This document shows, piece by piece, positions 3,418 through 49,609 of a stretch of DNA of 64,000 bases. The DNA is from Acidobacteriota bacterium (GTDB taxonomy: Bacteria; Acidobacteriota; Blastocatellia; RBC074), in assembly GCA_016789605.1 (NCBI GenBank), contig JAEUQO010000341.1, positions 7,751-71,750 of the forward strand, in the 5' to 3' direction. The notes beneath the pieces were generated by a model. That model saw only the letters and a program-made list of their open reading frames with translations, did no database searches and was not told the origin of the DNA. A program made the translations under genes and the position numbers. Within the stretch, counting starts at the first letter, position 1. Each line of letters starts with the position of its first letter.

Positions 3418-4323
3418 ATGGGAGACGAAAATTTCAGTTTCAGTTTTGAAATGCCAGCTGCCGATCGCCGCGCGCTGTTGGCCGAAGCTGCCGAATTGAT
3501 TGATTTGGACGCGGCGCATTTGGGCAGTGGCGGAACACGGCGCGGTCCTACCCGTGATGGCGGCGGACTGGGCGACGATGTGCGCGATGCGTTGGATGAA
3601 GACGCGCGTCTGGCGGCCAGCCCCGATGTTTATAAAATCACCGAACAAGATTACCTGGCGCGTTCGCTGGCGGTGCCGGTTCGTTTTGCCGATCTGACGC
3701 GCGATTTCGATTTTTACTGGGTGCGCTTTCCGGTCGGTTTGCAGCCGCGTCATCACTGGTCGTTCAACATGATCGAAGTCCGCATCGAATTTAATGCGGA
3801 TGAAGCCGCCGGTCATTTGCGCCCCAAAGCCTGGCAAATTCTGCCGAACAAAAAGTTCCAGACGATGCTCAAAGCCGATCAGCATCTGGAATTGCGTCTG
3901 GATGAGAATTTCGAGTTTGCCGCGCAATCGGGTGAACTGAGCGGGCGCGCAGGCAAAATTGACATCGGCGTGGAATCTGTCGCCAATGCGGGCGCGGGCG
4001 TTGTCCTGGGGCCATTCAATTACCAGATCAAACGCGCCCAGATCGAACACAACGCGCCGGGTATGGAATGGGTGTTTTGGCGGTTGGATGGCGCGGAATT
4101 TTTCCAGGAAGACAGCCCGGAATTGGTCGTCATCGCTCAGGTTCCCAAAGTGACCAAAACCGTCAAAATCAACGCGGTCTTGCAAGCGTATCGCAGCTTC
4201 AATTTGTGGAGCGCCAGCTTACAACGCGTGATCGGCAACCTGCCGCAAATGTTTCGCAATTACTTCAAAGGCGGCGCTCCGTTGCGTGACGAAAAGGTCT
4301 GGGATATTTCCACGCGTCTGTAA
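3418..4323 (+). CDS. Hypothetical protein with an acidic N-terminus and a beta-rich body, first gene of the CHAT/FlhA-C cassette
   Basis: AAGGAGG lies 8 nt upstream of ATG 3418. The 301 codons contain no Cys. The first ~70 aa are D/E/A/R/G-rich, and the remainder shows alternating hydrophobic beta-like patterns (FNMIEVRIEFNAD, IDIGVESVANAGAGVVLGPFNYQIKRAQIE). I recognise no family. Confidence 0.7.
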   Translation: MGDENFSFSFEMPAADRRALLAEAAELIDLDAAHLGSGGTRRGPTRDGGGLGDDVRDALDEDARLAASPDVYKITEQDYLARSLAVPVRFADLTRDFDFYWVRFPVGLQPRHHWSFNMIEVRIEFNADEAAGHLRPKAWQILPNKKFQTMLKADQHLELRLDENFEFAAQSGELSGRAGKIDIGVESVANAGAGVVLGPFNYQIKRAQIEHNAPGMEWVFWRLDGAEFFQEDSPELVVIAQVPKVTKTVKINAVLQAYRSFNLWSASLQRVIGNLPQMFRNYFKGGAPLRDEKVWDISTRL

Positions 4324-4370: not shown

Positions 4371-5921
4371 ATGTCCAACCCAAATCGCGAATTTAAGATC
4401 AGGATTCTCAACGATGGTTCGATCGAAGCCACCGAAGGGGTCAAGGTCTATCGCGCGCAATTGCAACTCGATCCGGTGCGCAGGCAAACCATCGAAGTGC
4501 TGGTGGATATGCTACGCGAAAGCCGCTTGCGCAAACCGCAGGAGTTTCGCGCGCTGGGCGAAAACCTCTATGACTGTTTGCTGGGCAACGACATCGGCAA
4601 ACACCTGAATCAGGCCATCAACAATCGCGAAATTGAATTTCTGCGGGTGGTTCTGGATTTCGGCGAAAAGCAGCAAGCGCTGGCAAGTTGGCCGTGGGAG
4701 TATCTGTATTGCCCATTGCAATTCGGTGTGGGCGGTACGGGCTACTTTCTCGCGACCAAAACGCGGCTGGTGTTGATGCGCGTCTTGCACCTTGACCTTG
4801 ACCCGGTGCCGCTCGAAGTCAAAGACCTGCCGCTGCGCGTGTTGTTCGTGGCTTCCAGTCCTGATGCCGCCGCCGAAAACGAAGAGAAACTGGATGAGGT
4901 TTTGTTCGAGCGATTGCTCGAAGAGTTGACTCAGCTCAAAGACGAAAGCGCAGGCAAAATTGATTTGTTGCCGTTGACCTGGTCGCGGCGTCGCCACGTC
5001 AAACCCGAAGAGCGCGAGCGGATGATCGTTACCAAACGGAATTTCCGCAGCGCATTGCTCAAATTCAATCCGCACGTCATTCACTTCATCGGCCACGGCA
5101 TTTGTAATGAACATGGCGGGCAATTGGCCTTGATGGCAGAAGACGGCACGCCGCATTGGTTGGATGGCGAAGCATTCGTCAATCTGCTCGAAGTCGCGCG
5201 CGATTTGCGGTTGGTCTTTTTGCACGCGTGCGAAAGCGCCCTGGCCGATCCATATCAAGCGGTGTCCAGCGTGGCGATGCGTTTGGCGCATAGCAATATT
5301 CCCGCCGTTGTGGCCATGCAATACAAGGTCGAGCAGGGCATTGCCAGCATCTTTGCCCGCAAGTTTTATCGCGCGTTGGCCGAAGCCAACTCGATTGATC
5401 TGGCTGTGCAAATCGGTCGTAACGAAATCGCGGATCAAGTCGAATCGTTGGCACAGAATTACGCGTTCGGATTGCCGGTGTTGTATTTGCGCGAACCCGG
5501 AACGTTGTTTCGTTTGAACGGTGCGCAGGTCGCCGACGGTCCGCCGTTGCCCAAACCGGCAGCGGGAGGCGCTTCATTGTCCGACGTGCGCGGCACAGCG
5601 GGGGACAATGCCGCACAGGTGATTTGCGACCGGTGCAACAACCCCAATCCGCCGGGACAACCGTTTTGCGACAATTGCGGGAATTCATTGGTGGTTGTGC
5701 CGCGCCTTTGCGCGCAGTGTAAACAGCCGCTGAAACCCAAGGCAAAATTCTGTGGCAATTGCGGCGCGCCCAGTGAAAACGCTACGCGCACTGGCGGGCT
5801 GTCTGCGGCGCCTCCAGCATCCACCACACCAATGCCAGCTTCGACGTCAGAGGCTGGCGGCTTCGATGACAGCCTGCGCATTTGGGGCGCGCGCCAATGG
5901 CAACAACCGGATAAATCATGA
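4371..5921 (+). CDS. CHAT-domain (caspase-like, clan CD) peptidase with C-terminal double zinc ribbon
   Basis: The His/Cys dyad context is typical of CHAT: VIHFIGHG (about nt 5080-5100) and LVFLHACES (about nt 5215-5240). The C-terminus has CDRCNNPNPPGQPFCDNCG and CAQCKQPLKPKAKFCGNCG (two CxxC...CxxC ribbons), then a P/A/S/T-rich tail. Its stop overlaps the next start (ATGA at 5918-5921). Confidence 0.85.
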   Translation: MSNPNREFKIRILNDGSIEATEGVKVYRAQLQLDPVRRQTIEVLVDMLRESRLRKPQEFRALGENLYDCLLGNDIGKHLNQAINNREIEFLRVVLDFGEKQQALASWPWEYLYCPLQFGVGGTGYFLATKTRLVLMRVLHLDLDPVPLEVKDLPLRVLFVASSPDAAAENEEKLDEVLFERLLEELTQLKDESAGKIDLLPLTWSRRRHVKPEERERMIVTKRNFRSALLKFNPHVIHFIGHGICNEHGGQLALMAEDGTPHWLDGEAFVNLLEVARDLRLVFLHACESALADPYQAVSSVAMRLAHSNIPAVVAMQYKVEQGIASIFARKFYRALAEANSIDLAVQIGRNEIADQVESLAQNYAFGLPVLYLREPGTLFRLNGAQVADGPPLPKPAAGGASLSDVRGTAGDNAAQVICDRCNNPNPPGQPFCDNCGNSLVVVPRLCAQCKQPLKPKAKFCGNCGAPSENATRTGGLSAAPPASTTPMPASTSEAGGFDDSLRIWGARQWQQPDKS

Positions 5922-8900
5922 GTACGCCTGCCATCCTTCTTGATCTGCAGCAAGCGCAGCCGTTGCGCCAGCTTTATTATGAGCTGGCGCGCACGTTGCT
6001 GGCGCAAGGGCGTGCGGCTGAGGCGGGCGAATTTGCGCAAAAGGCGTGGCGCGAACCGGGCACGATACCGCCCGACTGGACATTGCGTTACATCGAAGCG
6101 CTTTCAGCGCAGGCGCGCCAAGATGCGAGCGCTGCGTTGCGCGCCTTGCTGGACGTGGCAAAACTGGCCCCAGAGCACATTGCTGAGGTTTTACCGCCTG
6201 CACGAACATTGCTAACCAAACACGTCGCGGGGCTAGAACCCAGTTGGCTGCATAGTGAATTGACGGCCTTGCTGGCGCAGGATGGTTTGTCCGTTGTCAG
6301 TCGCGCTGAGGTGTTGTTCCTCTTAGGCCAAGTTCAGGCCTTCACGGGTGATTGGGCGCAAGCGCGTGCGTCTTTAGAACAAGCGCGCATCCTGACGCCG
6401 GACAACATACAAATTCTGGAAAGTCTGGCGGAAGTGTTGCAGCAAGCGGGCGAGACTGAGCCAGCGGTCGCAACCTTGCGCGAAGCGTTGGCTAAATCCG
6501 GCGCTGCGACAACACAAAGCTTGCGCCTGAAAGTGTCTCTTGCCCGCACCCTGCTCGTGCAACAACGTTACGACGATGCGCTCGCCGAACTTGCCGACGA
6601 AGATGCCTCTGCCGAGCTGGCCTTGTTGCGCGGACAGGTTTTGCTGGCCAAAGGGCAATGGCGCGCAGCACTGGTCGCTGCCGAAAACGTATTGCAAAAC
6701 GCGCCAGAAACGCTTGCAGCACACCTGCTGAAAATTCAGGCGTTGCTGGGGCTACATTGTTATAAGCAAGCCAACAGCGCCATTACGCTGGCGCTGCGCT
6801 ATGACCCGTCTAACGCCGACCTGACCTTTTTCAAAGTACAAGCACTGGTCGAAGGCCAAACCGATCTGGCACACGCCGAACGGTTATTGGCCGATTATTG
6901 CGAAGATGCAGGCCTGGCTGGATTGCGCGCACAACTGATGGCTCCGGCGTTGCTGGCGCGTCAGGCAGACGGCAACGCGCGTTACTTTCAGGCGCAGGTG
7001 TATTGCTGGCGTTCTGCGGACTGGCCGCCTGCCCAGGCGTTGCAGGAAGTCGAAGCGGCGCTTGATCTGGGCCTGAGTGCGGATGCGGACGCCGAAGCGG
7101 AAACGAATCCGGCGGGCGCTGCCTGGGAACTGAAAGGAAAAATCCTCGCCGCCGAGGCTCAAAACATAGCAGCGGCACAAGCCTTTTTTGAGGCGGGGCG
7201 TTCAGCCTATTGGGATGGGGAGTACAAACGCGCGCAGGGATTGTTTCAGCAAGCACATTCCTTGGATGTCGCTGTACAGGAAGTGTATTGGTACCTGGCC
7301 GATTGTTTCTATTTGCTCGCGGCCAGTCAGGTACCGCCGTATTACACCGAAGCGGAATTGCAGCAGGCGCTGACTTGGTGGCAGCGCGGACAAGCATTGG
7401 GCCAGCCTGATGCGGCAACGTCCTGGGCCTTCATCACGCGCGGACGCATCAACAGCGGCTTTGCCCGTCTGGTTGGTTACGACCCCATGGCCTTGCAATG
7501 GGAAGCCACGCTCTATCTGGAACGCGCGATTTTACTGAACGATGAAGAAGAAAATCGCTGGGCTGATTTGGCCATTCTCTGCCGCGATTTGTTGTTGGAT
7601 AACGTTGGCTTGCACGCGGCTGACCGCGCATTGCACATCAATCCAGATTCGCTGTTTGCGTTGGAAACGCGCGCAGCCGCCTTGTTGAATTTGGGCCGGG
7701 ATGAGGAATCAGACATCGCTTTGGCGGAATTGCGCAAACGTGCGCCGGGCCCTGTCTATGATAGTTGGTTGGCGATCATTCGGTTTTATCAGCGGAATTA
7801 CGAGGCGGCGATTGAACTGCTGAATGAAAGCGTCGAAGAAGACAATTTGTGGGCGCGTGCGCAACGTGCCAGTTGTTTTTTGTGTCTGGAACGGCTGGAA
7901 GATGCGCACAACGATTTTGCCTGGATTTGGGAGCGTCGCACCGATCCCGCTTATGCCACCAACGAAAACAGTTTTCCCTGGGCGGCGTTTTGGTTGGGAT
8001 TGCTCGACGAAGCACGCGCGCGCTACGACGCGTTGCTCGCCAAACCTGAAGAAGCGCTCAACGCCCAGCTCAAACTTTGTTTCTGCGAACTGGCTGCGGG
8101 CCGTTTGCCTGAAGCGCGTGCGCATTGGAGCGCCGGGTTGGCATTGGCCAAAAGCGCGCGCGATTTCGATTTTGAAGAGGTGTTGCTCGCGCAACTGGAA
8201 ACGCTTGCCGCGCGGGAACAATGGCCGCACGCGGCTGCGGTGTCCGCGTTGATCCACGGCGAAGATGGGTTGCTGGCAATGGCCGTTGCGCGCCGTACAG
8301 AGTTATTGCGCCAGCCGTTCACCGCGCGCCGTGAATTGGAACGCTGGTTGACGTTGCCACAGGCTCCCGCGCCGGGCAGCGACGCCTGGCTTGCGGTACA
8401 CGCTGAACTGGGCCGGTTCTGCCACGAAGAAGGTGATTGGTTGGCAGCGTTTGAAGCATACAGCGTGTTGTTGCCTTATGCCGAAAAAATCCCCGAAGCG
8501 CATCTGGGGCTGGAAAAAACTTGCGCAAGTTTGACGCCCGCGGATTACTGGCAACTGCGCGACCATTTGTCTGAGATGTTTGCTCGCACGGGAGCGTCCG
8601 TACAGGTGCAAGCCACCGTTCGCACAGCCCTGGAAACGGTTTTGCCCAGCGCCTATCGCCTGGCTGCGGCGCAAGATTGGTGGCCAATGGTCACGCCGCT
8701 TGCTGTTGAACTCAGTCCCAAGCTGGTTCCCGAAGACACCAGTGCGGAATGGGTGTTGTTCAAAACCTACATTCCGGAAATGCGTGCCCGCTTGCAGCAG
8801 GAGATGGGCCTGATCGTGCCGAGCGTCCGTGTGCGCGTCAACGAAGGTGATTTGCCTGAGGATGGCTACCTTATTCTGTTGCACGACGTTCCTGTGGTGA

Positions 8901-9712
8901 TGGGAGCGTTGCCATCGGGCCGCGCATTTTGTCCTGCGCCAATTGCGCAACTGCGCGCGCTGGGCATTCCCGATACCGCTTTGCTGGCAGCGACACATCC
9001 CGATGGCGTGACGCCAGGATGCTGGGTTGAATCGTCGTTTGTCGGCCTGATTCAGGCGCAAGGCATGACGGTCTGGCCTGACGAATGGGCGTTTCTGGTG
9101 CAACACCTCGAAGCGCTGTTGCGCGTCGCCTTGGCAGAGTTTTTGGGCGAACAGGAAGTCGCGGATTGGCTGACGCGTCAGGCACAGTCTGGTGTAAGCG
9201 CTGAGCTGATTGCCGCCGCCATTCCTGATGATTTGCGCCGGTTGCGACTGGGTCGCGTCTTGCGCGCCTTGTTGGCCGAACAAGTTTCGATTGCCGATGG
9301 GCAGGCGATTTTGACTGCGGTGCGCGAGGTCGGTTTGCCGCAAGACGACGTGCAATCGGTGGTCAGTGCTGTGCGGTTGCGTCTGAAAGCGATGTTGCCG
9401 GGCAATCGTCCGACGGATGAATTGATTACGGTTCCGCCAGCCCTCGAGCAATCCATTCCCCCGTATTTGAGCGCACACGGCGGAAAACTATATCTGACCG
9501 TTCCGCCCACGCAGACGCAGGAACTGCTGGCCGAATTTCGCTCGCTGTTAGAGACAGACGGACCCGGCAAAGTGTTGGTTGTGAACGATACGGTTGTGCG
9601 CCCGTTTGTGCGCCGTTTGCTCGAAGTCGAATTTCCACAAGTCATGGTTGTTGCACAGGCTGAGCTGTTGCCTCGCGCGACAGCCGTTGAGAGAGTTCGG
9701 GAACACCGTTGA
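5918..9712 (+). CDS. Large TPR-repeat protein with a C-terminal FlhA/FHIPEP cytoplasmic (FlhA_C-like) domain and no membrane domain
   Basis: About 900 aa of TPR-like helical repeats are followed by aa ~929-1264 (nt ~8700-9709), which align by eye along the whole Salmonella FlhA_C. Matches are EMGLIVPSVRVRVNEGDLPEDGYLILLHDVPVVMG vs DMGFLPPVVHIRDNMDLQPARYRILMKGVEIGSG, LGRVLRALLAEQVSIADGQAILTAV vs LHKVLQNLLAEKVPIRDMRTILETL, and VLVVNDTVVRPFVRRLLEVEFPQVMVVAQAEL vs VLLVNHALRPLLSRFLRRSLPQLVVLSNLEL. I saw no hydrophobic TM segments. Confidence 0.85.
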   Translation: MSTPAILLDLQQAQPLRQLYYELARTLLAQGRAAEAGEFAQKAWREPGTIPPDWTLRYIEALSAQARQDASAALRALLDVAKLAPEHIAEVLPPARTLLTKHVAGLEPSWLHSELTALLAQDGLSVVSRAEVLFLLGQVQAFTGDWAQARASLEQARILTPDNIQILESLAEVLQQAGETEPAVATLREALAKSGAATTQSLRLKVSLARTLLVQQRYDDALAELADEDASAELALLRGQVLLAKGQWRAALVAAENVLQNAPETLAAHLLKIQALLGLHCYKQANSAITLALRYDPSNADLTFFKVQALVEGQTDLAHAERLLADYCEDAGLAGLRAQLMAPALLARQADGNARYFQAQVYCWRSADWPPAQALQEVEAALDLGLSADADAEAETNPAGAAWELKGKILAAEAQNIAAAQAFFEAGRSAYWDGEYKRAQGLFQQAHSLDVAVQEVYWYLADCFYLLAASQVPPYYTEAELQQALTWWQRGQALGQPDAATSWAFITRGRINSGFARLVGYDPMALQWEATLYLERAILLNDEEENRWADLAILCRDLLLDNVGLHAADRALHINPDSLFALETRAAALLNLGRDEESDIALAELRKRAPGPVYDSWLAIIRFYQRNYEAAIELLNESVEEDNLWARAQRASCFLCLERLEDAHNDFAWIWERRTDPAYATNENSFPWAAFWLGLLDEARARYDALLAKPEEALNAQLKLCFCELAAGRLPEARAHWSAGLALAKSARDFDFEEVLLAQLETLAAREQWPHAAAVSALIHGEDGLLAMAVARRTELLRQPFTARRELERWLTLPQAPAPGSDAWLAVHAELGRFCHEEGDWLAAFEAYSVLLPYAEKIPEAHLGLEKTCASLTPADYWQLRDHLSEMFARTGASVQVQATVRTALETVLPSAYRLAAAQDWWPMVTPLAVELSPKLVPEDTSAEWVLFKTYIPEMRARLQQEMGLIVPSVRVRVNEGDLPEDGYLILLHDVPVVMGALPSGRAFCPAPIAQLRALGIPDTALLAATHPDGVTPGCWVESSFVGLIQAQGMTVWPDEWAFLVQHLEALLRVALAEFLGEQEVADWLTRQAQSGVSAELIAAAIPDDLRRLRLGRVLRALLAEQVSIADGQAILTAVREVGLPQDDVQSVVSAVRLRLKAMLPGNRPTDELITVPPALEQSIPPYLSAHGGKLYLTVPPTQTQELLAEFRSLLETDGPGKVLVVNDTVVRPFVRRLLEVEFPQVMVVAQAELLPRATAVERVREHR

Positions 9713-11427
9713 TGGCCCAGTTAGAACAACATTCAGGTGAACCGGTGTTGCGCGCCGAATTGGCTTTGGCGGAACCGGTGGCTGCGCGCGCTGACCTTGC
9801 CTTGTTGCAGCGCGAAGTGCAGCAAGAACTTGCCGCCGTGCAACAAGGCCTGGGTTTGCCCGGACGTTGGGACGTTGTGGTGACCAGTTCGACAGAACTA
9901 GCGCGCGCGCCCTTTGCGCTCACCATCAATGGGGAGCGTTGTTGGTTCAGCCTGGAGCTGCAACAGCGCGTCAGCTCATTGGTTTTGGATCTGCCGCTAG
10001 ATGCTTCTGCCGTGGTCGCACAGGTTTGGACAGAGAAACAGCTTCATCAGTTTTTGCGATTGATGTGCAGCCAGATCGTGAAAGAGCGCCCGACGGTTTT
10101 GCTGACTGCTGACGTTGTGACGGCGTATCGCAATGCGCTGCGGGCAGAAGTTGTTGCAGAAGCGTTGCCAGCCGAAACTGTCTTGCGGGAGATGCTTTCC
10201 GCTGCGCTTTCGTTATGGCTTTCGGTGGTGGATGCGAAAACGGTTGCGCGGGTCTGGCAGGAATCCGCACACGCAAACGATTCTGTCGCCGCCGCGCAAG
10301 AGCTGTTGATTGCGGCTTTACGACCCGGCGAGATCGAAGTGCATTTGAGCGAGGCTTACTTGCGCGAGATGACTTCGCAATCGTCGTCAGAAGAGCAGGG
10401 CATCTTTGGTTTGCTGCGCGAAGGGCTGTTTTATGAACTTGGCCTGCAGTTTCCTGATGTGCGCTTTGTGCTGACGGATGAGCTGCCAGCGCATTGGTTT
10501 CGCTTTCGCCTGAATCATCTGACGACGTTGCCGTGGCGTGGTTTGGCCGCCGGAGAGTGCTTGCTCAACGATGCGGCAGATCGGTTGCGAGTGCTTGGCA
10601 TCGAAAGTCGTCCGGCGTTGAACCCAGCCAACCGCAATGCCGTCAGCGTCGCAACGCAAGAGGCAAAACCTGTGGCTGAACAGGCGGGTGTTATCAGTTG
10701 GAGCCCGCTCGGCTATTTGATTCTGGCGCTTAGCGGTGAATTGCGCGCGCACGCCGCCGGATTCGTGGATGCCAATCTGGTCACCGTGATGCTGGACAAA
10801 TTGCAACAGGTTGCGCCGCAATTGACGGATGCCGCGCGCCAGCGGATTTCTGCGCCGTTGTTGACGCAAACCTTGCGCACGCTGGTGAGTGAAGACATCG
10901 CCATTCGGGACTTGCGTGCGATTTTGCAAGCGATGCTGGAATTCGATTACATCGAGGCCAACGAAACCCAACAGCTCATTTTTGATGCGCGGCTGGCGGT
11001 GTCGCGCGTTCCCGGCGAAGCCTGGTTTTCTGATCCTGTGCCGCGCGCCAGCCACGTGCGCGAACAGCTAAAACGCTATCTCAGTCATAAGTACACTCGC
11101 GGTCAGAGCACTTTGATTGTATATTTGCTGGACTGGCAGATCGAAAACCTGTTGCAGAACGAACATCTGGTTCGTACGGACGAATTCCTGGCGCAGCTTG
11201 CGCCAGAAACCAAGGCGCAAATTTTGGAGGCCGTCCGTGCCGAAGTCAGTAACCTACCAGTGACGGCTTCCGTGCCGGTTGTGCTGACCACCACAGCGGT
11301 GCGCCCGCTTTTACGCGCTATCATTGCACCTGAATTTCCCGCGCTGTCAGTGTTGAGTTATCGGGAACTGGTCGCTTATATGAACATTCAACCGATTGCC
11401 CGCATTGCATTGACCCAAATGCCGTGA
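9709..11427 (+). CDS. Soluble protein built of FlhA_C-like modules (a partial N-terminal copy plus a full C-terminal copy)
   Basis: The start is TTG 9709 or ATG 9712, overlapping the upstream stop (TGATG). Module 2 has ELGLQFPDVRFVLTDELPAHWFRFRLNHL, LTQTLRTLVSEDIAIRDLRAILQAMLEF and VVLTTTAVRPLLRAIIAPEFPALSVLSYREL. Module 1 has GLGLPGRWDVVVTSSTELARAPFALTINGER. No TM segments are present. Confidence 0.8.
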   Translation: MMAQLEQHSGEPVLRAELALAEPVAARADLALLQREVQQELAAVQQGLGLPGRWDVVVTSSTELARAPFALTINGERCWFSLELQQRVSSLVLDLPLDASAVVAQVWTEKQLHQFLRLMCSQIVKERPTVLLTADVVTAYRNALRAEVVAEALPAETVLREMLSAALSLWLSVVDAKTVARVWQESAHANDSVAAAQELLIAALRPGEIEVHLSEAYLREMTSQSSSEEQGIFGLLREGLFYELGLQFPDVRFVLTDELPAHWFRFRLNHLTTLPWRGLAAGECLLNDAADRLRVLGIESRPALNPANRNAVSVATQEAKPVAEQAGVISWSPLGYLILALSGELRAHAAGFVDANLVTVMLDKLQQVAPQLTDAARQRISAPLLTQTLRTLVSEDIAIRDLRAILQAMLEFDYIEANETQQLIFDARLAVSRVPGEAWFSDPVPRASHVREQLKRYLSHKYTRGQSTLIVYLLDWQIENLLQNEHLVRTDEFLAQLAPETKAQILEAVRAEVSNLPVTASVPVVLTTTAVRPLLRAIIAPEFPALSVLSYRELVAYMNIQPIARIALTQMP

Positions 11428-11463
11428 TGGGCAGTAAATTTGTCGAATTTTGGAGGAGATTCT

Positions 11464-11934
11464 ATGCCTACATTCAAAGGCCGCCGTCCGCCTGGAAAGA
11501 AACGTCCGGGAGGAGGAGGACAAGGCAGACCCGGCGGAAAACCAGGCGGACGTCCGGGAGGTAGACCCGGCGGAAAACCTGGCGGTAAACCTGGTGGAAA
11601 GCCCATGGGAAAAGGGGGCAGCAAGAAGTTTGCGAAGAAGAAACGCCCGGTTAAGAAGAAGGTTATCAAGAAACCAGCGATCCCCAATATTGAAAATACG
11701 GGGATGGAAGCCCTCTACTTAAAAGATTTGATGGTGGCCGAAGAATTGGTCGTCGTCGTGTTGCGCTCCGGCGAGGAAATTCTGGGATTCGTGCGGTATT
11801 ACGACAAAGATGTCGTCAGCATCGGTCCGGCGGATGACAGTCCGAAAATGTTATTGCCCAAAGACAGCATCCGATACATTTACGAAGCCGAAGATGCGCT
11901 GGCCAAAGCTGGCGACGAGGAAGACGACGAATAG
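11464..11934 (+). CDS. Sm/Hfq-like-fold protein with an N-terminal basic (PGGK/R)n low-complexity tail
   Basis: GGAGGAG lies 7 nt upstream of ATG 11464; the track ORF starts at TTG 11440. The N-terminus is GGRPGGKPGGRPGGRPGGKPGGKPGGKP. The C-terminus ELVVVVLRSGEEILGFVRYYDKDVVSI...MLLPKDSIRYIYE resembles an Sm1/Sm2 beta-strand pattern. The fold call rests on pattern only. Confidence 0.6.
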   Translation: MPTFKGRRPPGKKRPGGGGQGRPGGKPGGRPGGRPGGKPGGKPGGKPMGKGGSKKFAKKKRPVKKKVIKKPAIPNIENTGMEALYLKDLMVAEELVVVVLRSGEEILGFVRYYDKDVVSIGPADDSPKMLLPKDSIRYIYEAEDALAKAGDEEDDE

Positions 11935-11982: not shown

Positions 11983-12065
11983 AAAATACATCTGAAAGCG
12001 CGGACGTCCAGGCAAGCACTGTGAATGCGCCGGATGTCTGCGCTTTTAGCCTTTGCGAGGTAGTT

Positions 12066-13934
12066 ATGATTCTGAAGCGGCTCCTTCTCCTTTCAGCCTT
12101 GATCGTACTCACTCAGCTCGTTGGCAAGGCACAGACGCCTGAAAAGGGTGCTGCTGCATCGCCCGCCGAAACAGCACAAAAAGCCAAACCGGAACTGGAA
12201 AAAAAAGCGGCTGCCTTGCTGGATGAAGTGGTGACAGATGCGGGGGCGTTGCGCCTGATCGAAAACCGGTTGTTTGTGTTGACCACTGCCGCAAATTTGC
12301 TTTGGGCGCGCGACGAAGCGCGCGCACGCACCTGGTTGCGCGAAGCGATGAATCAGTTTTACGCCATCGAACCGCCCGCACAATCGGCTCCCGTCGGCCC
12401 GGAGCAGATGCAACAATGGGAAATGCGTTCTATGTTGCGCATGCAATTGTTGCAATTCCTGGCCGAACGCGACCCCAAACTCGCGCTGGAGTTTTTACGG
12501 GCTTCGCGGCAGACGCCGCCTGACAGCCTGGTTAAAATGACCGGACGGCAGAGCAACGATTTTGAGCAACAGTTTGAATTGCAATTGGCTGCCAAAATGG
12601 CGGAAAACGACCCGGCAGAGGCGTTGCGCATTGCAGAAGAAACACTCAACAAAGAGCTGAATCACCAGGTTCTCGAAATCCTCTCACTTTTGCAGAAGAA
12701 AGACGCTGCCGCTGCCCGGCGGTTGTCCGGTCAAATCATCACAAAACTGAAATCCGCCGACCTGGTCAAAGGTTACACCTCGTCCAGCATTGCGTTTTCA
12801 ATGTTTTTTGACATCCGCGCACGCATCCAGGCCGCACAGCGTGATCCCAAACAGGCGGCGATCAAAACGGTTGCGCCATTGGCAGACTTGGAGCAGACCT
12901 TGCGCGATCTGCTGGAGATTATGGCGACTGCCGTGCAGAAGGTAACCGCCAGCACGTTGCTCGACATGCAGGAACAGGGGCAGGCGCGCCAACTGCTTTC
13001 GCAGGCGCAAATGATGATGCCCGAATTGGAAAAATACCTGCCGCGTCAGGCGGCGGCTGTCCGTGTGAAACTCAACCAGTTCGACAAGGCGTTTTATCGC
13101 GCGCCAATACCAACTGAGCCAATCGAAGCGATGGAAAAGAAAACGGCTGATGAATTGCTGGCAATGGCCGGCAAAGCGCAGCCGGAAATCAGAGACATGC
13201 TCTATCGTCAGGCTGCCATCAAAGCGGCGGAACAAGGTGACGGAGAGCGCGCACGCCAGATCGTGAAACAGTTTATTCCCGCGGGCACGGATGATCCGAT
13301 TATGCGTGAAATCGAGGGGAAAGAGCGGGAACACGCCGCCGAACAGGGGAAGTTTGAAGAGGCGCGGCAAAGTCTGGCGCAATTGAGCAGCGATCACGAA
13401 CGCGCATTGGCGCTGATCAATCTGGCCCGGCAGGCTGGCACAAAAAATCAGGCGAAGACCCAGCGGCAACTGCTCGAAGAAGCGCGCGCGCTGATCGGTG
13501 AGCGTTTAGAAACGCGTGCGCAAGTCACCGTGCAATTGGCGCTGGCTGGCGGTTATCTGCCGCTTGACCCTGATCGCAGTTTCACCACGCTCGAAACGTC
13601 CATCGAAAAACTCAACACCGTGATGGCTGCGATCATTCTGCTCGACAATTTTGACGCTGTCGAAGGCGGTCTGTTTGGCGGCAGTCGTTTTAAGGATGGG
13701 GAAATGCGCATGACCAACGCTGAGTTCGCTTCGGGATTCACCGACAACTTTGGCGAACTGTTGAACGAATTTGCGCAAGCGGATTTTGACCGTACCAAGA
13801 ACGCGTTGCGCCGTTGGCAGGTCAACGAAGTGCGCCTGATGATGGACCTGCTGATTGCTGAAAACATTCTGAAAGAGAAAAAAGAATCGTCGCCGAATAT
13901 TGGTCGTGGGTATCCGCGCCCCCGCATTTATTGA
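12066..13934 (+). CDS. Secreted alpha-helical repeat protein, hypothetical
   Basis: ATG 12066 gives a classical signal peptide, MILKRLLLLSALIVLTQLVGKAQ. The long A/E/L/R/Q-rich helical sequence matches no family I recognise. Confidence 0.7.
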   Translation: MILKRLLLLSALIVLTQLVGKAQTPEKGAAASPAETAQKAKPELEKKAAALLDEVVTDAGALRLIENRLFVLTTAANLLWARDEARARTWLREAMNQFYAIEPPAQSAPVGPEQMQQWEMRSMLRMQLLQFLAERDPKLALEFLRASRQTPPDSLVKMTGRQSNDFEQQFELQLAAKMAENDPAEALRIAEETLNKELNHQVLEILSLLQKKDAAAARRLSGQIITKLKSADLVKGYTSSSIAFSMFFDIRARIQAAQRDPKQAAIKTVAPLADLEQTLRDLLEIMATAVQKVTASTLLDMQEQGQARQLLSQAQMMMPELEKYLPRQAAAVRVKLNQFDKAFYRAPIPTEPIEAMEKKTADELLAMAGKAQPEIRDMLYRQAAIKAAEQGDGERARQIVKQFIPAGTDDPIMREIEGKEREHAAEQGKFEEARQSLAQLSSDHERALALINLARQAGTKNQAKTQRQLLEEARALIGERLETRAQVTVQLALAGGYLPLDPDRSFTTLETSIEKLNTVMAAIILLDNFDAVEGGLFGGSRFKDGEMRMTNAEFASGFTDNFGELLNEFAQADFDRTKNALRRWQVNEVRLMMDLLIAENILKEKKESSPNIGRGYPRPRIY

Positions 13935-14510: not shown

Positions 14511-14671
14511 TCCAACCTTTACGCAGACAGCATAGATTTATGATCACTGTGCTGGCCGTGATCCTGGTGGTGTTGTTCGTCGCGGGGTTATTGGTGCGGC
14601 GGACGATTCCTGCCAACCCGCATTTACCTGAAGCTGTTCTCACGTCTCCTTCAGTCAGGAACGAGCAATGA
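14507..14671 (+). CDS. Small single-pass membrane protein
   Basis: ATG 14507 overlaps the upstream stop (14508-14510). It has one TM helix (MITVLAVILVVLFVAGLLV), and its stop overlaps the next start (ATGA at 14668-14671). Confidence 0.45.
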   Translation: MIQPLRRQHRFMITVLAVILVVLFVAGLLVRRTIPANPHLPEAVLTSPSVRNEQ

Positions 14672-15708
14672 GCCATACCTACAGCGCAATCGGTTGGAAC
14701 CGGCAAAAAAGGCTTTACGATGGTGTCGTCGTTGCGGGCGTGATTTTATACCTGGCGCTCTTTGCTGGCGTTGGTGCACTGGTTCATCCCAATGCGACCA
14801 TTGAAACCTTGCTGATTCGTGGCTTGGGAACCTGTGCGTTGCTGTTGTTGCACGTGATTTTGCTGATCGGACCGTTATGTCGTTTGCAGCCGCAATTGTT
14901 GCCCTTGCTCTATAACCGGCGGCATTTGGGCGTGACGATGTTTTTGGTGGCCTTGGCGCACGGCGTGTTTTCGCTCATTCAATTTCATGCGCTGGGAGAT
15001 TTGTCTCCGCTGGTGAGCTTGTTTGTCAGCAACACGCGTTACGACAGTCTGGCGAATTTTCCTTTTCAGCCGTTGGGGTTTATCGCGTTGTTGATTCTGT
15101 TTTTGATGGCGGCAACCAGTCACGACTTTTGGCTGGCAAATTTGACTGCGCCGGTCTGGAAGCGGCTGCACATGCTGGTGTATGTGGCGTACGGGCTGAT
15201 CGTTGCGCATGTCGTGTTGGGCGTGTTGCAGGCCGAAACCAGTCCCTGGTTGGCGATTCTGCTGGGCAGCGGTTTGCTGGCAGTGCTCGGGTTGCATTTA
15301 TGGGCAGGGTATCGTGAACGTCACCATGACCAGGAGCTTGCTGCGCCGAACCACGATGGCTGGGTGGATGTTTGCGCGGTAAAGGACATTCCGGCCAATC
15401 GTGCATGTATTGCGACCGTCGCGGGCGAACGCATCGCCGTCTTCAAATACGAAGGCAAAGTCTCGGCTCTTTCCAACGTTTGCCAGCATCAAAACGGCCC
15501 TTTAGGCGAAGGCGAAATCATTGACGGATGTGTGACTTGTCCCTGGCACGGGTATCAATATTTGCCAGACACGGGAGCTTCGCCGCCGCCGTTCACTGAA
15601 AAAGTGCCAACCTTCAACGTCAAAATCGTGAATGAGCGTGTGTTCGTGGACCCGTGTCCAAATGCGCCCGGAACACGCGTGGAACCGGCTTTGGTGTCAA
15701 ACGAATAA
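14668..15708 (+). CDS. Ferric-reductase-like (MsrQ/YedZ-type) transmembrane domain fused to a C-terminal Rieske [2Fe-2S] domain
   Basis: The N-terminal half has six hydrophobic helices with conserved His (RRHLGVTMFLVALAHGV, HMLVYVAYGLIVAHVV). The C-terminus carries the Rieske motifs CQHQNGPL and CPWHGYQY. Confidence 0.8.
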   Translation: MSHTYSAIGWNRQKRLYDGVVVAGVILYLALFAGVGALVHPNATIETLLIRGLGTCALLLLHVILLIGPLCRLQPQLLPLLYNRRHLGVTMFLVALAHGVFSLIQFHALGDLSPLVSLFVSNTRYDSLANFPFQPLGFIALLILFLMAATSHDFWLANLTAPVWKRLHMLVYVAYGLIVAHVVLGVLQAETSPWLAILLGSGLLAVLGLHLWAGYRERHHDQELAAPNHDGWVDVCAVKDIPANRACIATVAGERIAVFKYEGKVSALSNVCQHQNGPLGEGEIIDGCVTCPWHGYQYLPDTGASPPPFTEKVPTFNVKIVNERVFVDPCPNAPGTRVEPALVSNE

Positions 15709-16490: not shown

Positions 16491-16760
16491 ACCTGAGCTC
16501 GCCCGCGCCGTGGCGTATTCTGTCATTTTTGTCGTATCCACAAACCCTGTATCTGCCTGAGTAGTTGATTTTTACACCGCCTCGCTGATCCATTGGCAAA
16601 CCCGCACGGTTGAATCCTGTCTTGCCGCAATCCCTGTTTGCATCTATCAGATTTTGATTTAGACTACAGCGGCTTTTGCGTAGCTTTTTCAGGCCCACAC
16701 AACTACCAAGCAGGCCGAAACGAAGCGACTTTTCCAGCACGAAAAAGAGAACGTACATCC

Positions 16761-19412
16761 ATGACCTTCTGTACCAATTGCGGCAAGAAATTGAACGTGG
16801 GCGCAACGAAGTGTGATACCTGCGGCATTGGTGTGATTGCTGTTCGGCCGACTCCTCCCGAAGCACCTGCGAAGGGCACGGTAGCGGATTCTGATGACCT
16901 CAAAACTCAAATCAAACAATTTCATACAAGCAGCCCTGAGGGGGACGTTGGTATGACCGAAAAATTGGCGTCGGCGTTTCCGCTAGGCTCGCAAGTTGGC
17001 CGCGTGTTGGGCGGGCGATATCAGTTGGATGATTGCATCGGTGGTGGCGGCATGGGCGAGATTTACCGCGCGCGTCGCTTGCATATTGGCGACACCGTGG
17101 CCGTCAAAGTGTTGCGGCCCGATGTGGTGGAAAATGAAAAGTCGCGCCAACGGTTTTATCGCGAAGCCCGCGCGGCGGCGATGTTGCACCATCCCAACGC
17201 GGTCGTGATTCACGATTTCGGCGAAGACAGCGACGGCACCGCCTATATTGTGATGGAGCTTTTGGTGGGCCGGAATTTGCGCCAGTTGTTGGTGGATGAA
17301 GGGCCGATCAGTCCCGTGCGCGCTTATGGGATCATCAAGCAAACTTGTGCTGCGCTGGAGGCGGGGCATCGCAACGGCATCGTGCACCGCGACATCAAAC
17401 CTGACAACATCGTGTTGCTGGATTCACACGATGACACCGACCACGTGAAGCTGCTTGATTTCGGGATTGCCAAAGTGCTCGACAAAGCGCTTGATACGCT
17501 CAGCCTGGAACAGCGCTTGACCAACGTCGGCACCGTGATCGGCACACCGCATTACATGTCGCCTGAACAGTGTCAGGGAGAAGAAGCCGATCCTCGTTCT
17601 GATATCTATAGCCTTGGCGTTGTGTTGTATGAATTGTTGACGGGCGTTGTGCCGTTCATCGCGAAAACGCCCACAGGCGTCGCGATCAAACATGTGACCG
17701 AAGCGCCCCGTCCGTTGCACGAACTAAATCCTTCGATTCCGATTACGGTGGAATCTGTGGTATTGCGTGCTTTGGAAAAAGAACCGGGCGCACGCCAGCC
17801 CTCAGCGCTGGAATTGGCGCGCGAATTTGAACTGGCGGTGCGCAGTTCTGCGCCGCTCGAAGACACGACGCAAATCCTCAACACTTCCGCCGAACGGCAA
17901 ATGGCCGAGCAGTTGAAAAAAGCGCCTCCGGCGGCGACCGATCTGCTCACGCCTGCGGCGGATACTGGAAACCAAAAGAAACTGGGGACCAAACCCCAGA
18001 GCTTTGACACGATGATTTCCACGCCGGCAGGGGGAGACGGCGAAGCACAGGCAAATACCAATATCTTGCCCGCTTCGAAGCAAACCGGCGAACAGAAGCT
18101 TTCGACGCAAGATTTACGGACACAAGTCATCGAGCCGGCTTCACCGACGCCACAGGAAAAAGTAAAGTCAGAACCGGCCAAGACTGCCCCCCAGAAGCCC
18201 GCCAAACAAAAAGAAACCAGTACGCAAAAAACGCCTGCCAGTGCCGCGACAGAAGCCTTTCGCACAGATCCTTTTGCGGGCACGGATATATTGTCGGACG
18301 CAAAACCGGAACCCCAAAAACAACCTAGTGCTGTCGTTAGCGAAGCCAAACCAGTCGCACCAGCCAAACCAGCCGCGCCAGCCAGTATGGCGGCTGCTCC
18401 GGCGAAATCACGTGCGCCAATGTTGATCGGGTTGGGGGTGGTTGTATTGGCTTTGGCCGGAGCCGGAGCATGGTTGTTCAGCTCCGGTGGCGAAAAGTCC
18501 GGCGGATCATCTGCGACGCCGTCTGCATCGCCTGGGGCGGTTGCTTCGTCACAATCGTCGCCATCGGCAGTTCAAACCTATCCGGCACAAGCTGCACCCG
18601 AAGGAATGGTTTATGTGATTGGCGGCCCCATTCGCATCGGTCGTGACGACGGAGAAGAAAGCGAACGGCCTGCGCATACGATGACGGTCAAACCGTTTTA
18701 CATTGACCTGACCGAAGTCACCAACGAGCAGTATCAAAAGTTTATTGACGAAAAAGGCTATCCTGCGCCGCCTTCGTGGCAGGGAAATCGCTTCCCGGCG
18801 GGGTCTGAAAAGCTTCCCGTGACGGACGTCAGTTGGGAAGATGCCAACGCTTATGCGCAATGGGCAGGCAAGCGATTGCCCACCGAAGAAGAGTGGGAAT
18901 TTGCCGCGCGTGGTTCTGATGACCGCAAGATTTTCCCCTGGGGCGAAGATTGGCGCGACAATGCAGCCAATGTAATGGCAGACGAAAAGGATCAAAAACA
19001 GTTGGTTGCGGTCGGCCAGTTTTCTGCAGGAGCCAGCATCTTTGGCGTTCTTGATCTCATCGGAAATGCGTGGGAATGGACGGCCAGCGATTATCAGGCT
19101 TACCCGGGCGGCAAAGTGGAAGCGCTGCCGGGTTTTTCAAACCTGAAAGTGATTCGCGGCGGCTCATTCCAAAGCCTGGCGAAAAAGACCACCGCTACGT
19201 TGCGTCGCGGCTGGCCTGGCAGCCGGAAAGATTGGCCTGCCAACCGCAAGCCGGATTACGGTCAAACGGGCTTCCGCTGTGCACAAGACGCCAAATCAAC
19301 GGCTTATTGGCAAGCGCCGGAATTGCATCGCTCGCAAGTTGCTGAAGTCGTGCTGAACAAAGCCGCGAGTGTGCGGCGACGAGTTAATCGCCTACAAAAT
19401 CGTTTCTTATAG
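16761..19412 (+). CDS. Ser/Thr protein kinase with an N-terminal zinc ribbon, one TM helix and a C-terminal FGE-sulfatase (SUMF1-like) domain
   Basis: It starts [17 protein letters not shown]. Hanks motifs are [34 protein letters not shown] and [15 protein letters not shown]-rich linker leads to the TM helix [23 protein letters not shown] motifs are [40 protein letters not shown] and RGGSF. Confidence 0.9.
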
Positions 19413-41063: not shown

Positions 41064-41695
41064 CGTTCACCCATCCAGTCTTTCGAAGTTTTTGGTTTCA
41101 GCTACCTGATCGTTTCCGACAGAAGATAAATTGTAGACGATGATACAATTTTTCTAGAATTTTTCTGAAAATCTCACACCAATTTGTAGGATAAAGTACT
41201 ATAATCTACGCCGCAAAAGCGCCAAAAACAGTGGCGATCTTAATTTCATTGACATCGCTAATCCAGATAGGAGGCAAAAGAATGACATTTTAGCGTTTGG
41301 TAGAAGACAGTGGTTTTCGCTAAATCCTTTGCGCTGTTTTGCCTGGTAGTTTTGCATCCAGTGCCTGGATTTGCTCTGAAGCATCGGCCTGCTTCTCAGC
41401 CCCCCACAACTGAGAATTCCCTGACTCTCTGCCTCATTTCCCGCACGTTTCGGCTTGGTAAAAGCTGTCCATCTTGACAGGTTCCTACCAGGTGAATTGA
41501 GCATCAATAACGGTAACGGCTAAGCGGAACGAGGCACGCTCCCAAGACAAGATAAGATTTCGATGAACGCCAATAGGTGAAAGAGGTTTGTGACCCTAAC
41601 AAACTTCTCGATCGGAACGTCATTGTCTGGGCTTTGCATTACGCACTCCTTCCCGCTACAAGCCACAGCCGCTCAACAATTTGAGGTATAAGACA

Positions 41696-44600: not shown

Positions 44601-44797
44601 GCGTGCTGGTCAGCCTTTGGAACATCAATGACCAGGCGACCGCAGACTGGATGGAGCGGTTTTACCGCGAATTGCTAGGAAAAGGGCAGAGTCCTGCTGC
44701 CGCCCTGCGCGCGGCGCAAATCGCTCTTTGGCAAGAGAAACAATGGCAAGCGCCCTATTACTGGGCAGCATTTGTCCTGCAAGGCGAGCCACGCTAA
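41696..44797 (+). CDS. Secreted or membrane-anchored PPC-like / TPR / CHAT-domain protein
   Basis: Start is ATG 41696; the track gives TTG 41681. It has an N-terminal hydrophobic segment (IALLSTLTITGLLLFSSFF) and a pre-peptidase-C-like beta domain (AHAYRVQLGAGQYLRIAVEQ...AGHYLIKIEE). Multiple TPR_12-type repeats follow (NLGALQEASRNYREALSYFQQAL). The CHAT dyad context is YLHFATHG and LVVLSGCRTG. Confidence 0.85.
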   Translation: MIRLLPPFVSNSVVSSLRKRPSIALLSTLTITGLLLFSSFFPQVSEGQSTPLTTQHEETLEQGAVRERAISIGEAHAYRVQLGAGQYLRIAVEQHGVAVTTAVFLENGIPSNEKGIPQPSEKATSQKLIEVDSAGIERASVISTDAASYRIVIQASKSQSAGHYLIKIEEKRPAYPQDQTRVAAEKAMADAVQFTRQNKREALLKSAELYRMALGLWQSLPDRQMADRQQEARARYLLALRHQDLGDIQQGIGHALEALAISRETFDRIRETAVLNALGSMYFALGDKMKAVAYFEQALSASRIINDQATELAVLINMGVAYKSAGASAQAIDIYQQALPTARAIGDLTVEAAALTNLARLYDLQGDRQRALEHNQQALKLWRKLENTDGEATALKNLGALQEASRNYREALSYFQQALALSETLGDLHREAHIRGDLARLYRTQGDLKNSGAQIERSLAIFESLRGKLVSPDLRSSFLAAQRRYYEFYVSLLMQMHQAQPSAGHDTAALRVSERARARSLVEMLQEARTDIRQGVDISLLERERSLEQMLQAKEQERLRLSKRKAPVAAVAEVEQALLSLSTEYEQVQTKIRQASPHYASLTQPQILSLADMQKQLVSADTLLLEYGLGEERSFLWVVSDTSLQSFSLPPRAEIEQTVRKFYEALTARGRTVKFETEEKRQARIARADAEYAALAQSLSQMLLGPARELLGQKRLLIVPDRVLHYVPFGALPETRLAGQAQDATPLIVNHEVVHLPSATSLAVLRQEIAQRPPAPKSIAVLADPVFDSADQRVKAVVSQKVSSTDNVAQHTGSLAWLRDEMASSLQNACPEVDRVETRESMVRLPYTRKEAQAIMSLAPTANSKIALDFDADRKAATDSALGQYRYLHFATHGLLNDKHPALSGLALSFVGRNGVEQDGYLRAMDIFNMKLPAELVVLSGCRTGLGKEVRGEGMIGLTRSFMYAGAARVLVSLWNINDQATADWMERFYRELLGKGQSPAAALRAAQIALWQEKQWQAPYYWAAFVLQGEPR

Positions 44798-49397: not shown

Positions 49398-49609
49398 ACG
49401 AACACCTAACGTTGTATCCAGCAGCAATTGTTGGTTGACCCCCAGACATGGGCGGCAGGCAGTGCGGTCTGTCATCCGTGGTGGGAGCGGTCTGTCTTTC
49501 TGGCGGCAGTCTCACCGCCGCCAACTTGCAGGCGTGTGTGATCCCGCTTTGCACACGCCAGGGGAATTCCCCGCAAGATCATTGAAATCACTGAACATCA
49601 AGAAACACT

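Follow-up and report, generated by a model that had tools for sequence, protein, structure and literature searches.

Outside the locus described here, the domain that FlhA and SctV have in the cytoplasm is, to our knowledge and in the papers searched, described solely as a ring under the type III export gate. Gate proteins carry this domain behind a membrane part of about eight transmembrane (TM) helices that spans roughly 330 amino acids (aa). In true SctV and FlhA, a nonameric ring is stabilized by a linker (SctV_L or FlhA_L) preceding the first subdomain, SD1 (PMC8213127), and there is a precedent for a TPR-type chaperone docked on the SctV cytoplasmic domain (SctV_C), namely YscV with YscX:YscY (PDB 7qij). 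Here we describe a locus within a 64,000-nucleotide stretch of DNA from an Acidobacteriota bacterium (the window; positions 7,751 to 71,750 of the forward strand of contig JAEUQO010000341.1, NCBI GenBank assembly GCA_016789605.1), in which two adjacent open reading frames (ORFs) encode this domain free of any membrane part. As judged from homology, ORF1 and ORF2 are intact and encode soluble paralogues of the ring domain that the SctV/FlhA export gate has in the cytoplasm. The conserved core of the surrounding operon of four genes consists of this pair, and the two other genes encode a CHAT protease and a pore-former-like protein called w301. A first-pass annotation of the window had noticed the two domains and missed this operon context, including the CHAT and pore-former-like partners and the existence of two co-evolving paralogue types.

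Other described systems come close to the remainder of the operon. In the type III-E CRISPR Craspase (gRAMP with TPR-CHAT/Csx29), a partner-controlled CHAT protease cleaves a co-encoded substrate upon activation. STAND/NLR-like systems, along with defence of the Avs and bNACHT type, are built from modular sensors or scaffolds, adaptors and protease or lipase effectors, with TPR among their super-structure repeats. Bacterial gasdermin operons encode a CHAT, C14 or trypsin protease, often with TPR, LRR, WD40 or NACHT domains, and the protease cleaves the gasdermin, which then forms pores (bioRxiv 10.1101/2021.06.07.447441). The operon in the window resembles these gasdermin- and STAND-type conflict systems, and its novelty is substantial, residing in the core scaffold or sensor, the candidate executioner and the use made of the fold. 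In our assessment there is an even chance that the operon is a previously undescribed caspase-type conflict or cell-death module in which an SctV_C-like hetero-oligomer with a TPR arm controls a protease and a pore-former.

We use the term type A for ORF1-type proteins, in which the FHIPEP (SctV/FlhA) cytoplasmic domain (FHIPEP_C) lies at the C-terminus behind a long N-terminal extension, and type B for ORF2-type proteins. The Pfam FHIPEP profile (657 positions, cut-off 29.1 bits) aligns its positions 326–654 with ORF1 residues 920–1252 (E = 8.5e-37, 127 bits). ORF2 matches positions 246–554 and the C-terminal part of the same profile (E = 5.2e-37, 128 bits), and its alignment extends back to position 246 without any hydrophobic helices. 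When PDB sequences are searched, the C-domain of ORF1 (ORF1_C) retrieves CdsV_C (E = 2.5e-24), YscV (3e-20) and FlhA (5e-17), and ORF2 retrieves CdsV_C of Chlamydia with E = 4e-33. Both domains are collinear with Chlamydia CdsV_C across approximately 330 residues, followed in rank by YscV, Salmonella FlhA, InvA, EscV, MxiA and SsaV.

Structure prediction agrees with these matches. For ORF2, an AlphaFold2 (AF2) model based on 26 sequences of the family (pLDDT 87, pTM 0.88) matches the C-domains of CdsV, YscV and FlhA in Foldseek searches with E = 1e-21 and a TM-score of 0.84 to CdsV_C, normalized to the target. The type A and type B domains thus have in common with the gate its four-subdomain fold and clear sequence homology, and they keep the motifs '..SIR(D/N)LR.IL..' in SD3 and '..NIQPI.RI' at the C-terminus. 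All of the peptides quoted in the first-pass annotation are present in the ORF1 and ORF2 translations. Its proposals of an FlhA_C-type domain at the end of ORF1 and of a second full copy in ORF2 are both supported by the profile and PDB sequence matches, and the second also by the structure search.

In contrast with the gate, and as the first-pass annotation had proposed, neither protein has an eight-helix TM domain. No segment of 19 residues reaches the Kyte–Doolittle mean of 1.6 that served as the threshold for a TM segment, with maxima of 1.36 for ORF1 and 1.49 for ORF2. Equivalog models of NCBIfam tell the same story. ORF1 scores 104 bits with the FlhA model TIGR01398 (cut-off 772 bits) and 93 bits with the SctV model TIGR01399 (cut-off 692 bits), matching the C-terminal third of the models only, and ORF2 scores 99.5 and 134 bits, respectively, again over the C-terminal part only; all four values are far under the cut-offs.

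Also in contrast with the gate, in the loci examined the A and B genes are not linked to SctRSTU/FliPQR-FlhB, ATPase, rod or hook genes. Essentially all window ORFs of at least 150 aa that are not nested in a longer ORF were scanned with Pfam and NCBIfam (about 15 of them match neither), and no flagellar or injectisome gene was found in the 64 kb, which upholds a further claim of the first-pass annotation. Export-apparatus, ATPase or rod genes are likewise absent from the related loci with full Pfam tables (L001, L004, L006, L008 and L090–L094), and other loci were covered by clustering and spot checks. Because they have no TM domain, no linkage to export genes and only sub-threshold equivalog scores, A and B lie outside the export-gate family as proteins, although they share its C-domain.

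The lack of a TM domain, together with the fragmented state of one related locus (L060), could be read to mean that the ORFs are decaying flhA or sctV remnants, or that an assembly or frameshift artefact hides a membrane domain. This explanation is barely conceivable given that both ORFs are intact, that full-length homologues with 38–45% identity occur in more than 25 independent assemblies, and that domain order, pairing and fusions are conserved in a family whose type A members alone fall into at least 286 clusters at 50% identity. Moreover, ORF1 directly abuts ORF2 and begins with TPRs, not with a membrane domain. The fused membrane domain or frameshift that the first-pass annotation had raised as a caveat is therefore not borne out.

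In ORF1, residues 18–597 match several TPR families of Pfam, and the TPR part is 30–35% identical to the same region of the type A proteins in loci L001, L004, L011, L012, L016 and L019; a search of this part for a Walker A motif found none. The N-domain of ORF2 (residues 1–205) is confidently folded in the AF2 model and conserved over the 26 family members. It is shortened in Bacteroidota, and a linker of about 35–45 aa takes its place in forms in which A and B are fused. The first-pass annotation had interpreted this region as a partial copy of the ring domain. The order of its elements in the model indeed resembles SD1 followed by the SD3 helices of the C-domain, and a profile–profile alignment of the N-domain with the C-domain (hhalign) is collinear but weak (E = 0.018, probability 2.5%). 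An internal partial duplication is suggested by this pattern, and the partial copy is not established.

Two of the gene junctions overlap. The stop codon of the CHAT gene overlaps the start of ORF1 as ATGA (5918–5921), and the ORF1 stop overlaps the ORF2 start as TGATG (9710–9714). The first-pass annotation had given ORF2 as 9709..11427 (572 aa); the frame itself stands, and the start is most likely the ATG at 9712, which yields 571 aa, the length of the 98%-identical protein P0001. A scan for promoters and terminators returned counts at or under the shuffle expectation. Two further ORFs downstream (11440–11934 and 12021–13934) were considered as members of the module and rejected, as neither has a homologue in any related locus.

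In sequence, neither the type A nor the type B domain is more distant from injectisome SctV than from FlhA. Searching the database with ORF2 yielded approximately 30 clusters of full-length homologues (~560–615 aa, 38–45% identity), and the next-ranking matches are hundreds of genuine 716-aa SctV proteins from Myxococcota and 'Deltaproteobacteria', which align over the C-domain only with 42–45% identity. On average, A is 20% identical to B and 31% to Myxococcota SctV; for B the average to Myxococcota SctV is 42%, and FlhA-like sequences are at 20–26%. A neighbour-joining tree, in which SctV and FlhA were sparsely sampled, groups the A sequences in one clade and the B sequences in another, with congruent internal branching; the first-pass annotation had raised the question of a separate clade for these domains. 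Furthermore, when pairwise distances among A were compared with those among B for 19 loci in a Mantel-type test, the correlation was r = 0.69, a value that none of 5000 label permutations reached. The phylogeny does not track taxonomy, and the distribution is patchy across phyla. Together these patterns indicate that A and B are an ancient paralogue pair, inherited and exchanged as a unit, and not simple duplicates.

The pairing itself is strict. Our survey of the family covered one genome per GTDB species and further metagenomic contigs. In all 17 loci of the genome scan, type A lies immediately upstream of type B wherever upstream sequence exists (the contig of L020 breaks off upstream of B, and L060 is in fragments), and the same order is found in L001, L004, L006, L090, L091 and L094. 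Natural fusions preserve the order A–B in at least two lineages, represented by locus L039 (Verrucomicrobiae, 1388 aa) and protein P0086 (877 aa). The distant locus L008 carries type B alone, adjoining a peptidase M3 gene. Co-diversification, natural fusions and overlapping stop and start codons suggest that A and B act as one complex. In the fragmented locus, from a Pyrinomonadaceae metagenome-assembled genome (MAG), the A/B region (9473–11414) is split into short ORFs, which could represent a decayed copy or assembly frameshifts.

Relatives of the type A domain are far more numerous than word-based searching indicates. A word-index search with ORF1_C found three weak FlhA matches only, a failure of the index, since an exhaustive HMMER search gave 2066 representatives with E < 1e-3, including 286 with E < 1e-30. 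Among the best 150 of these representatives, the domain mostly lies near the C-terminus of proteins of about 1200–1700 aa, and the remainder comprises proteins of about 450–1000 aa, fragments and a few cases with the domain in mid-protein. The pattern expected of a gate protein (~700 aa, with the match starting from residue ~340–360) does not occur among these 150. Several type A representatives contain two or three matched stretches, indicating further fusions.

Independent assemblies with the A/B architecture number more than 25 and come from six phyla or more. Hosts include Acidobacteriota (Blastocatellia, Chloracidobacterium, Bryobacterales and Pyrinomonadaceae), Chloroflexota (Ardenticatenaceae, Promineifilaceae and Anaerolineae), Bacteroidota (Ferruginibacter, Draconibacterium and the cultured flavobacterium Pelagihabitans pacificus TP-CH-4), 'Deltaproteobacteria', Smithella (Desulfobacterota), Verrucomicrobiae and Thiodiazotropha (Gammaproteobacteria). 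Full-text literature searches found no account of FHIPEP C-domains that lack the membrane part, nor of a connection between such domains and caspase-like proteases, and the one paper that mentions both FHIPEP and CHAT (PMC9019756) concerns a genuine flhA gene. The view of the first-pass annotation that this is a new use of the fold is supported.

This distribution bears on whether A and B might be soluble regulators or decoys of a genuine type III secretion system (T3SS) or flagellar gate encoded elsewhere in the genome, which they would influence by titrating a chaperone–substrate complex, a stalk protein or a gatekeeper off or onto the membrane gate. Such a role would fit the retention of the full SD1–SD4 fold and of the most conserved SctV motifs, as well as the 42–45% identity of type B to genuine Myxococcota SctV_C. 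However, no export-apparatus gene is present in the window or in the neighbourhoods examined through Pfam tables, clustering and spot checks, the genes conserved alongside the pair encode proteases and candidates for lytic effectors instead of secretion components, and the pair is present in Bacteroidota, including the cultured P. pacificus. We know of neither flagella nor injectisomes in that phylum. We thus regard regulation of the cell's own gate as improbable.

The partners of the A/B pair point towards proteolysis. The product of the gene immediately upstream of ORF1 in the window matches the CHAT family (E = 1.1e-20, aa 61–354) and the DZR family (E = 4e-10, aa 419–465) of Pfam. Its catalytic His (in FIGHGIC) and Cys (in FLHACESA) are both present, and thus the dyad is intact in sequence. 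A search against PADLOC gave a weak match to the SAVED_CHAT domain only. Orthologues with 33–38% identity occupy the same position in L001, L004, L011, L012, L014, L015 and L073. The gene upstream of A is a protease gene in most loci: CHAT genes lie next to A/B in at least ten (the seven just listed, L090, L091 and the window), caspase C14 genes, some with the adaptor domain EAD2, in L018, L039, L069 and L094, and a trypsin-like gene in L017. A weak EAD7 match is seen in the CHAT protein of L001. Other candidate effectors, encoded where the window has w301, are a patatin phospholipase (L018), an LCAT/PGAP1-like lipase accompanied by a small P-loop protein (L006) and an MBL-fold protein accompanied by an AAA ATPase (L017), and neighbours at related loci include TIR and TIR-CHAT proteins, a giant NB-ARC-WD40 protein and a HipA toxin.

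The first gene of the operon encodes w301, which has no match in Pfam, NCBIfam, PADLOC or PHROG. The protein belongs to a well-conserved family of 106 clusters with lengths of about 300 aa. Five genomic contexts were reached from distant w301 homologues, independently of FHIPEP genes, and in all five w301 lies directly upstream of a CHAT gene, after which comes a gene for a large TPR protein. The full w301–CHAT–A–B operon recurs in two of the five (a Ktedonobacteraceae-like contig and a Pyrinomonadaceae MAG), which represent two phyla, and the fifth contig stops inside the third gene. In the other two, L092 and L093, the TPR protein is a giant without detectable FHIPEP_C, which makes w301–CHAT a portable cassette of effectors that serves different kinds of partner. 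The position directly upstream of CHAT is also occupied by w301 in L004, L014 and L069.

In four other loci, a gene family called f360 (~360 aa, 45–56% identity, with a charged helical C-terminus) replaces w301 upstream of CHAT. Alignment of the w301 and f360 profiles with hhalign revealed no relationship. In L071 (7530–9548), f360 is fused to the N-terminus of a type A FHIPEP_C protein.

Several features of w301 are suggestive of a pore-forming protein. Its AF2 model (pLDDT 82.5, pTM 0.82) has 65 Foldseek matches in the PDB with E < 1e-3 (best E = 6e-7), and almost all of the best 50 of these are alpha-hemolysin, leukocidin, NetF, NetB or delta/beta-toxin structures. No gasdermin fold is among these 50, and PADLOC gives no gasdermin match. 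The protein has an acidic N-terminus and no hydrophobic signal or TM segment (Kyte–Doolittle maximum 1.08). Around residues 165–205 the model contains a low-confidence segment of 36–52 residues, 45% of which are Gly, Ala or Val, located where toxins of the alpha-hemolysin type have their membrane hairpin or stem. Residues 30–62 form a poorly conserved linker after the N-terminal helix. On the basis of this predicted alpha-hemolysin/leukocidin-like fold, w301 is a candidate protease-activated pore-forming executioner. It differs from the secreted toxins in that it lacks a signal peptide, has an extra N-terminal helical region, yields low TM-scores and has a protease gene as its neighbour, where the toxins are virulence factors for secretion; the likeness consists of nearly all significant structural neighbours and of the central Gly/Ala/Val-rich segment of about 45 residues.

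Comparison with described systems locates the operon more closely. As in bacterial gasdermin operons, a small cytoplasmic candidate pore-former stands beside a CHAT or C14 protease, repeat-type domains could serve as sensors and the distribution is patchy. The predicted logic, in which protease cleavage would release the pore-former, is also shared. In contrast, the predicted fold of w301 is alpha-hemolysin/leukocidin-like and not that of a gasdermin, and two SctV_C paralogues take the place of sensor or scaffold, an arrangement absent from the paper on gasdermin operons, in which the term FlhA does not occur (bioRxiv 10.1101/2021.06.07.447441).

The operon shares with STAND/NLR-like systems their modular arrangement, the EAD2 and EAD7 domains on linked proteases and, in some relatives, the fusion of a STAND NTPase to FHIPEP_C. 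It differs from them in that the four proteins in the window have no P-loop: neither a Walker A motif nor an NTPase match in Pfam was found in w301, CHAT, ORF1 or ORF2. Because no NTPase is present in the window version, the FHIPEP_C oligomer would fill the scaffold role that the ATPase has in STAND/NLR systems. In a paper on conflict systems (eLife 2020;9:e52696), the terms FlhA, FHIPEP, SctV and 'type III secretion' do not occur. The arrangement also recalls Craspase, where a large partner controls a CHAT protease through a TPR module, as is proposed here; in the window, however, the CHAT protein is a polypeptide of its own, and it is FHIPEP_C that the TPR array is joined to. No cas-like protein family and no Rfam family, including those for CRISPR direct repeats, was matched, although the window as a whole was not given a dedicated search for repeats. 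Relative to the export gate itself, the departures are the pairing of diverged paralogues, the fusion partner of type A (TPR here, a STAND NTPase or f360 in relatives) and the protease partners.

Relatives also contain a third kind of FHIPEP_C protein. In L032 (1897–6378) and L071 (357–4775), a STAND NTPase (nSTAND1, with the Walker A motif GAGGTGKS) carries a C-terminal FHIPEP_C, and the gene lies just upstream of an uncharacterized gene of about 900 aa and the A/B pair. These fusions place FHIPEP_C in an NLR-like network of domains.

A conserved core, interchangeable proteases and lytic effectors, EADs, STAND fusions and a phylogeny that ignores taxonomy are hallmarks of conflict or cell-death systems, and the following mechanism would be consistent with them. 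A and B would assemble together as a hetero-oligomer of the SctV_C kind, perhaps one ring or several stacked on each other, which we infer from their strict adjacency, translational coupling, co-diversification and natural fusions. The TPR arm of type A, the docking clefts inherited from SctV_C, or both, may bind a trigger or hold partners. The assembly would then activate CHAT through recruitment or proximity, much as caspases are activated on an apoptosome or inflammasome. If the analogy with gasdermin operons of bacteria holds, CHAT may cleave w301, probably in the variable N-terminal linker. The Gly-rich hairpin of cleaved w301 would enter the inner membrane from the cytoplasmic side and kill the cell, in the manner of abortive infection or altruistic death. 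Fold resemblance and gene linkage are the observed parts of this last step. That the operon is a protease-linked conflict module and not a secretion system is more probable than the even chance given above, and the full chain of these steps is less so.

A number of observations weigh against this proposal. The fold match of w301 has TM-scores of just 0.32–0.36 and no sequence support, as a w301 profile finds no match among PDB sequences. No PADLOC model matches w301, A or B. Only a subset of A/B loci contain w301, and others have the unrelated f360 or uncharacterized genes. Conversely, w301–CHAT pairs are found with giant TPR proteins that have no detectable FHIPEP_C in L092 (2743–10855) and L093 (8001–16177), so A/B is one of several alternative partners, and its role may be that of a sensor, a scaffold or a regulator. 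CHAT proteases also act in roles outside conflict. The best NCBIfam match of the CHAT protein in the window is a weak one to HetF, and the locus is not in an obvious defence island, being flanked by gyrA, a TPR protein gene, a Rieske/ferric-reductase protein gene and argH.

These last points are among those that would be expected if the module carried out regulated proteolysis for development or cell division, with a HetF-like CHAT protease and with A/B as a scaffold for a housekeeping or differentiation substrate. The hosts, moreover, are often filamentous or complex (Chloroflexota, Ktedonobacteraceae and Acidobacteriota), and the genes around the locus are housekeeping genes. A developmental role is distinctly unlikely when set against the patchy cross-phylum distribution, the phylogeny that does not follow taxonomy, the interchange of proteases and effectors between loci, the linkage to a pore-former-like protein and the TIR, NB-ARC and HipA neighbours.

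A and B could alternatively form a cytoplasmic platform that holds and sorts a secreted toxin, either w301 or another cargo, for an unrelated exporter, with CHAT as a maturation protease. The docking of chaperone–substrate complexes is the ancestral task of SctV_C, TPR proteins are class II chaperones of pore-forming translocators (one is seen on YscV_C in PDB 7qij), and w301 resembles secreted beta-pore-forming toxins. We nevertheless consider this unlikely, because the conserved module has no membrane component, exporter or signal peptide, and because partners as varied as patatin, lipase, MBL-fold proteins, caspases with EAD2 and a STAND NTPase constitute a signature of intracellular conflict, unlike what a dedicated export route would show.

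A more specific version of the conflict module casts A/B as a soluble SctV_C-type ring that serves as a caspase-activating death platform and, in its boldest form, as an immune decoy of the export gate. Its clefts would recognize type III-style cargo, or mimics thereof, from phage or from effectors of predatory Myxococcota or Bdellovibrionota, and recognition would fire CHAT and the hemolysin-like pore-former from inside the cell. The closest SctV relative is of the predatory Myxococcota/Bdellovibrionota type (42–45% identity). We give this version a very slim chance.

With respect to phage, one profile of the PHROGs collection, phrog_12657 (function not known, 579 positions), matches the FHIPEP_C of both proteins (E = 2e-18 and 1e-12). 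The matches cover the proteins encoded at 8498–9712 and 9712–11427 and are the sole PHROGs match for the module. This suggests that FHIPEP-like genes occur in sequences classed as phage or prophage. A Foldseek search of the ORF2 model against viral structures (BFVD) returned nothing below E = 0.1.

What sets the family apart is that FHIPEP_C has been freed from the membrane, duplicated as co-evolving paralogues and linked to caspase-like proteases and lytic effector candidates across phyla. If the conflict-module proposal is correct, A/B would represent a new class of NTPase-free scaffold or sensor for bacterial cell death or immunity, and w301 a further family, next to the gasdermins, of candidate pore-formers that act from inside and are gated by a protease. 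The case would also be a clear exaptation of a secretion-machine part for signalling, with a bearing on the evolution of T3SS components. As soluble and probably easily purified homologues, A and B could serve in studies of SctV_C ring assembly and ligand docking, and the cultured host P. pacificus TP-CH-4 makes experiments feasible.

Table 1 Coordinates of the operon, its protein domains and the f360 genes of related loci
Feature	Position	Strand	Description and basis
w301	3418..4323	+	301-aa cytoplasmic protein, candidate executioner; family conservation, AF2/Foldseek
CHAT protease	4371..5921	+	Caspase-like (clan CD), 516 aa, C-terminal double zinc ribbon; Pfam
ORF1 (type A protein)	5918–9712	+	1264 aa; TPR array, then FHIPEP cytoplasmic domain
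Type A N-terminal part	5918..8674	+	~920 aa, TPR/helical-repeat array, putative sensor/adaptor arm; Pfam TPR families
Type A FHIPEP cytoplasmic domain	8675..9712	+	ORF1 aa 920–1264; Pfam, PDB sequence matches
ORF2 (type B protein)	9712–11427	+	571 aa; N-domain and FHIPEP cytoplasmic domain
Type B N-domain	9712..10323	+	Family-specific, ~205 aa; AF2 confident, conserved in family
Type B FHIPEP cytoplasmic domain	10324..11427	+	SD1–SD4; Pfam, NCBIfam, PDB, AF2/Foldseek
f360	L011 1388–2470; L012 4171–5241; L015 3013–4101; L073 3283–4362		No Pfam match in one member scanned

Elsewhere the window contains gyrA, argH, lptD, CarD, tex, an RND pump, peptidases and a second TPR-CHAT protein; lptD and CarD are suggestive of a diderm. 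The TPR-CHAT protein (41681–44797, + strand) is an unrelated 1038-aa fusion of a TPR_12 array and CHAT (E = 2.9e-70 for CHAT), and the next ORF, of 679 aa and on the other strand, is without a family match. In the interval from about 49400 to 53170 (~3.8 kb) the ORFs do not exceed 136 aa, and scans for Rfam families, tRNAs and tandem repeats were empty there. Adjoining it on the − strand (53177–63877) are seven consecutive ORFs (344, 606, 366, 745, 595, 291 and 231 aa) with no Pfam or NCBIfam match, in a block with a GC content of ~0.60 versus ~0.55 and a positive AT skew. Starting approximately 5 kb downstream of ORF2, a gene at 16638–19412 (+ strand) encodes a 924-aa fusion of a Ser/Thr kinase, one predicted TM segment and an FGE-sulfatase (SUMF1-like) domain, and similar kinase genes occur near the module in L004 and L012. 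Closer to the operon, and unrelated to it, the gene at 14668–15708 (+ strand) encodes an unusual 346-aa fusion of a ferric-reductase-like transmembrane domain and a Rieske [2Fe-2S] domain.

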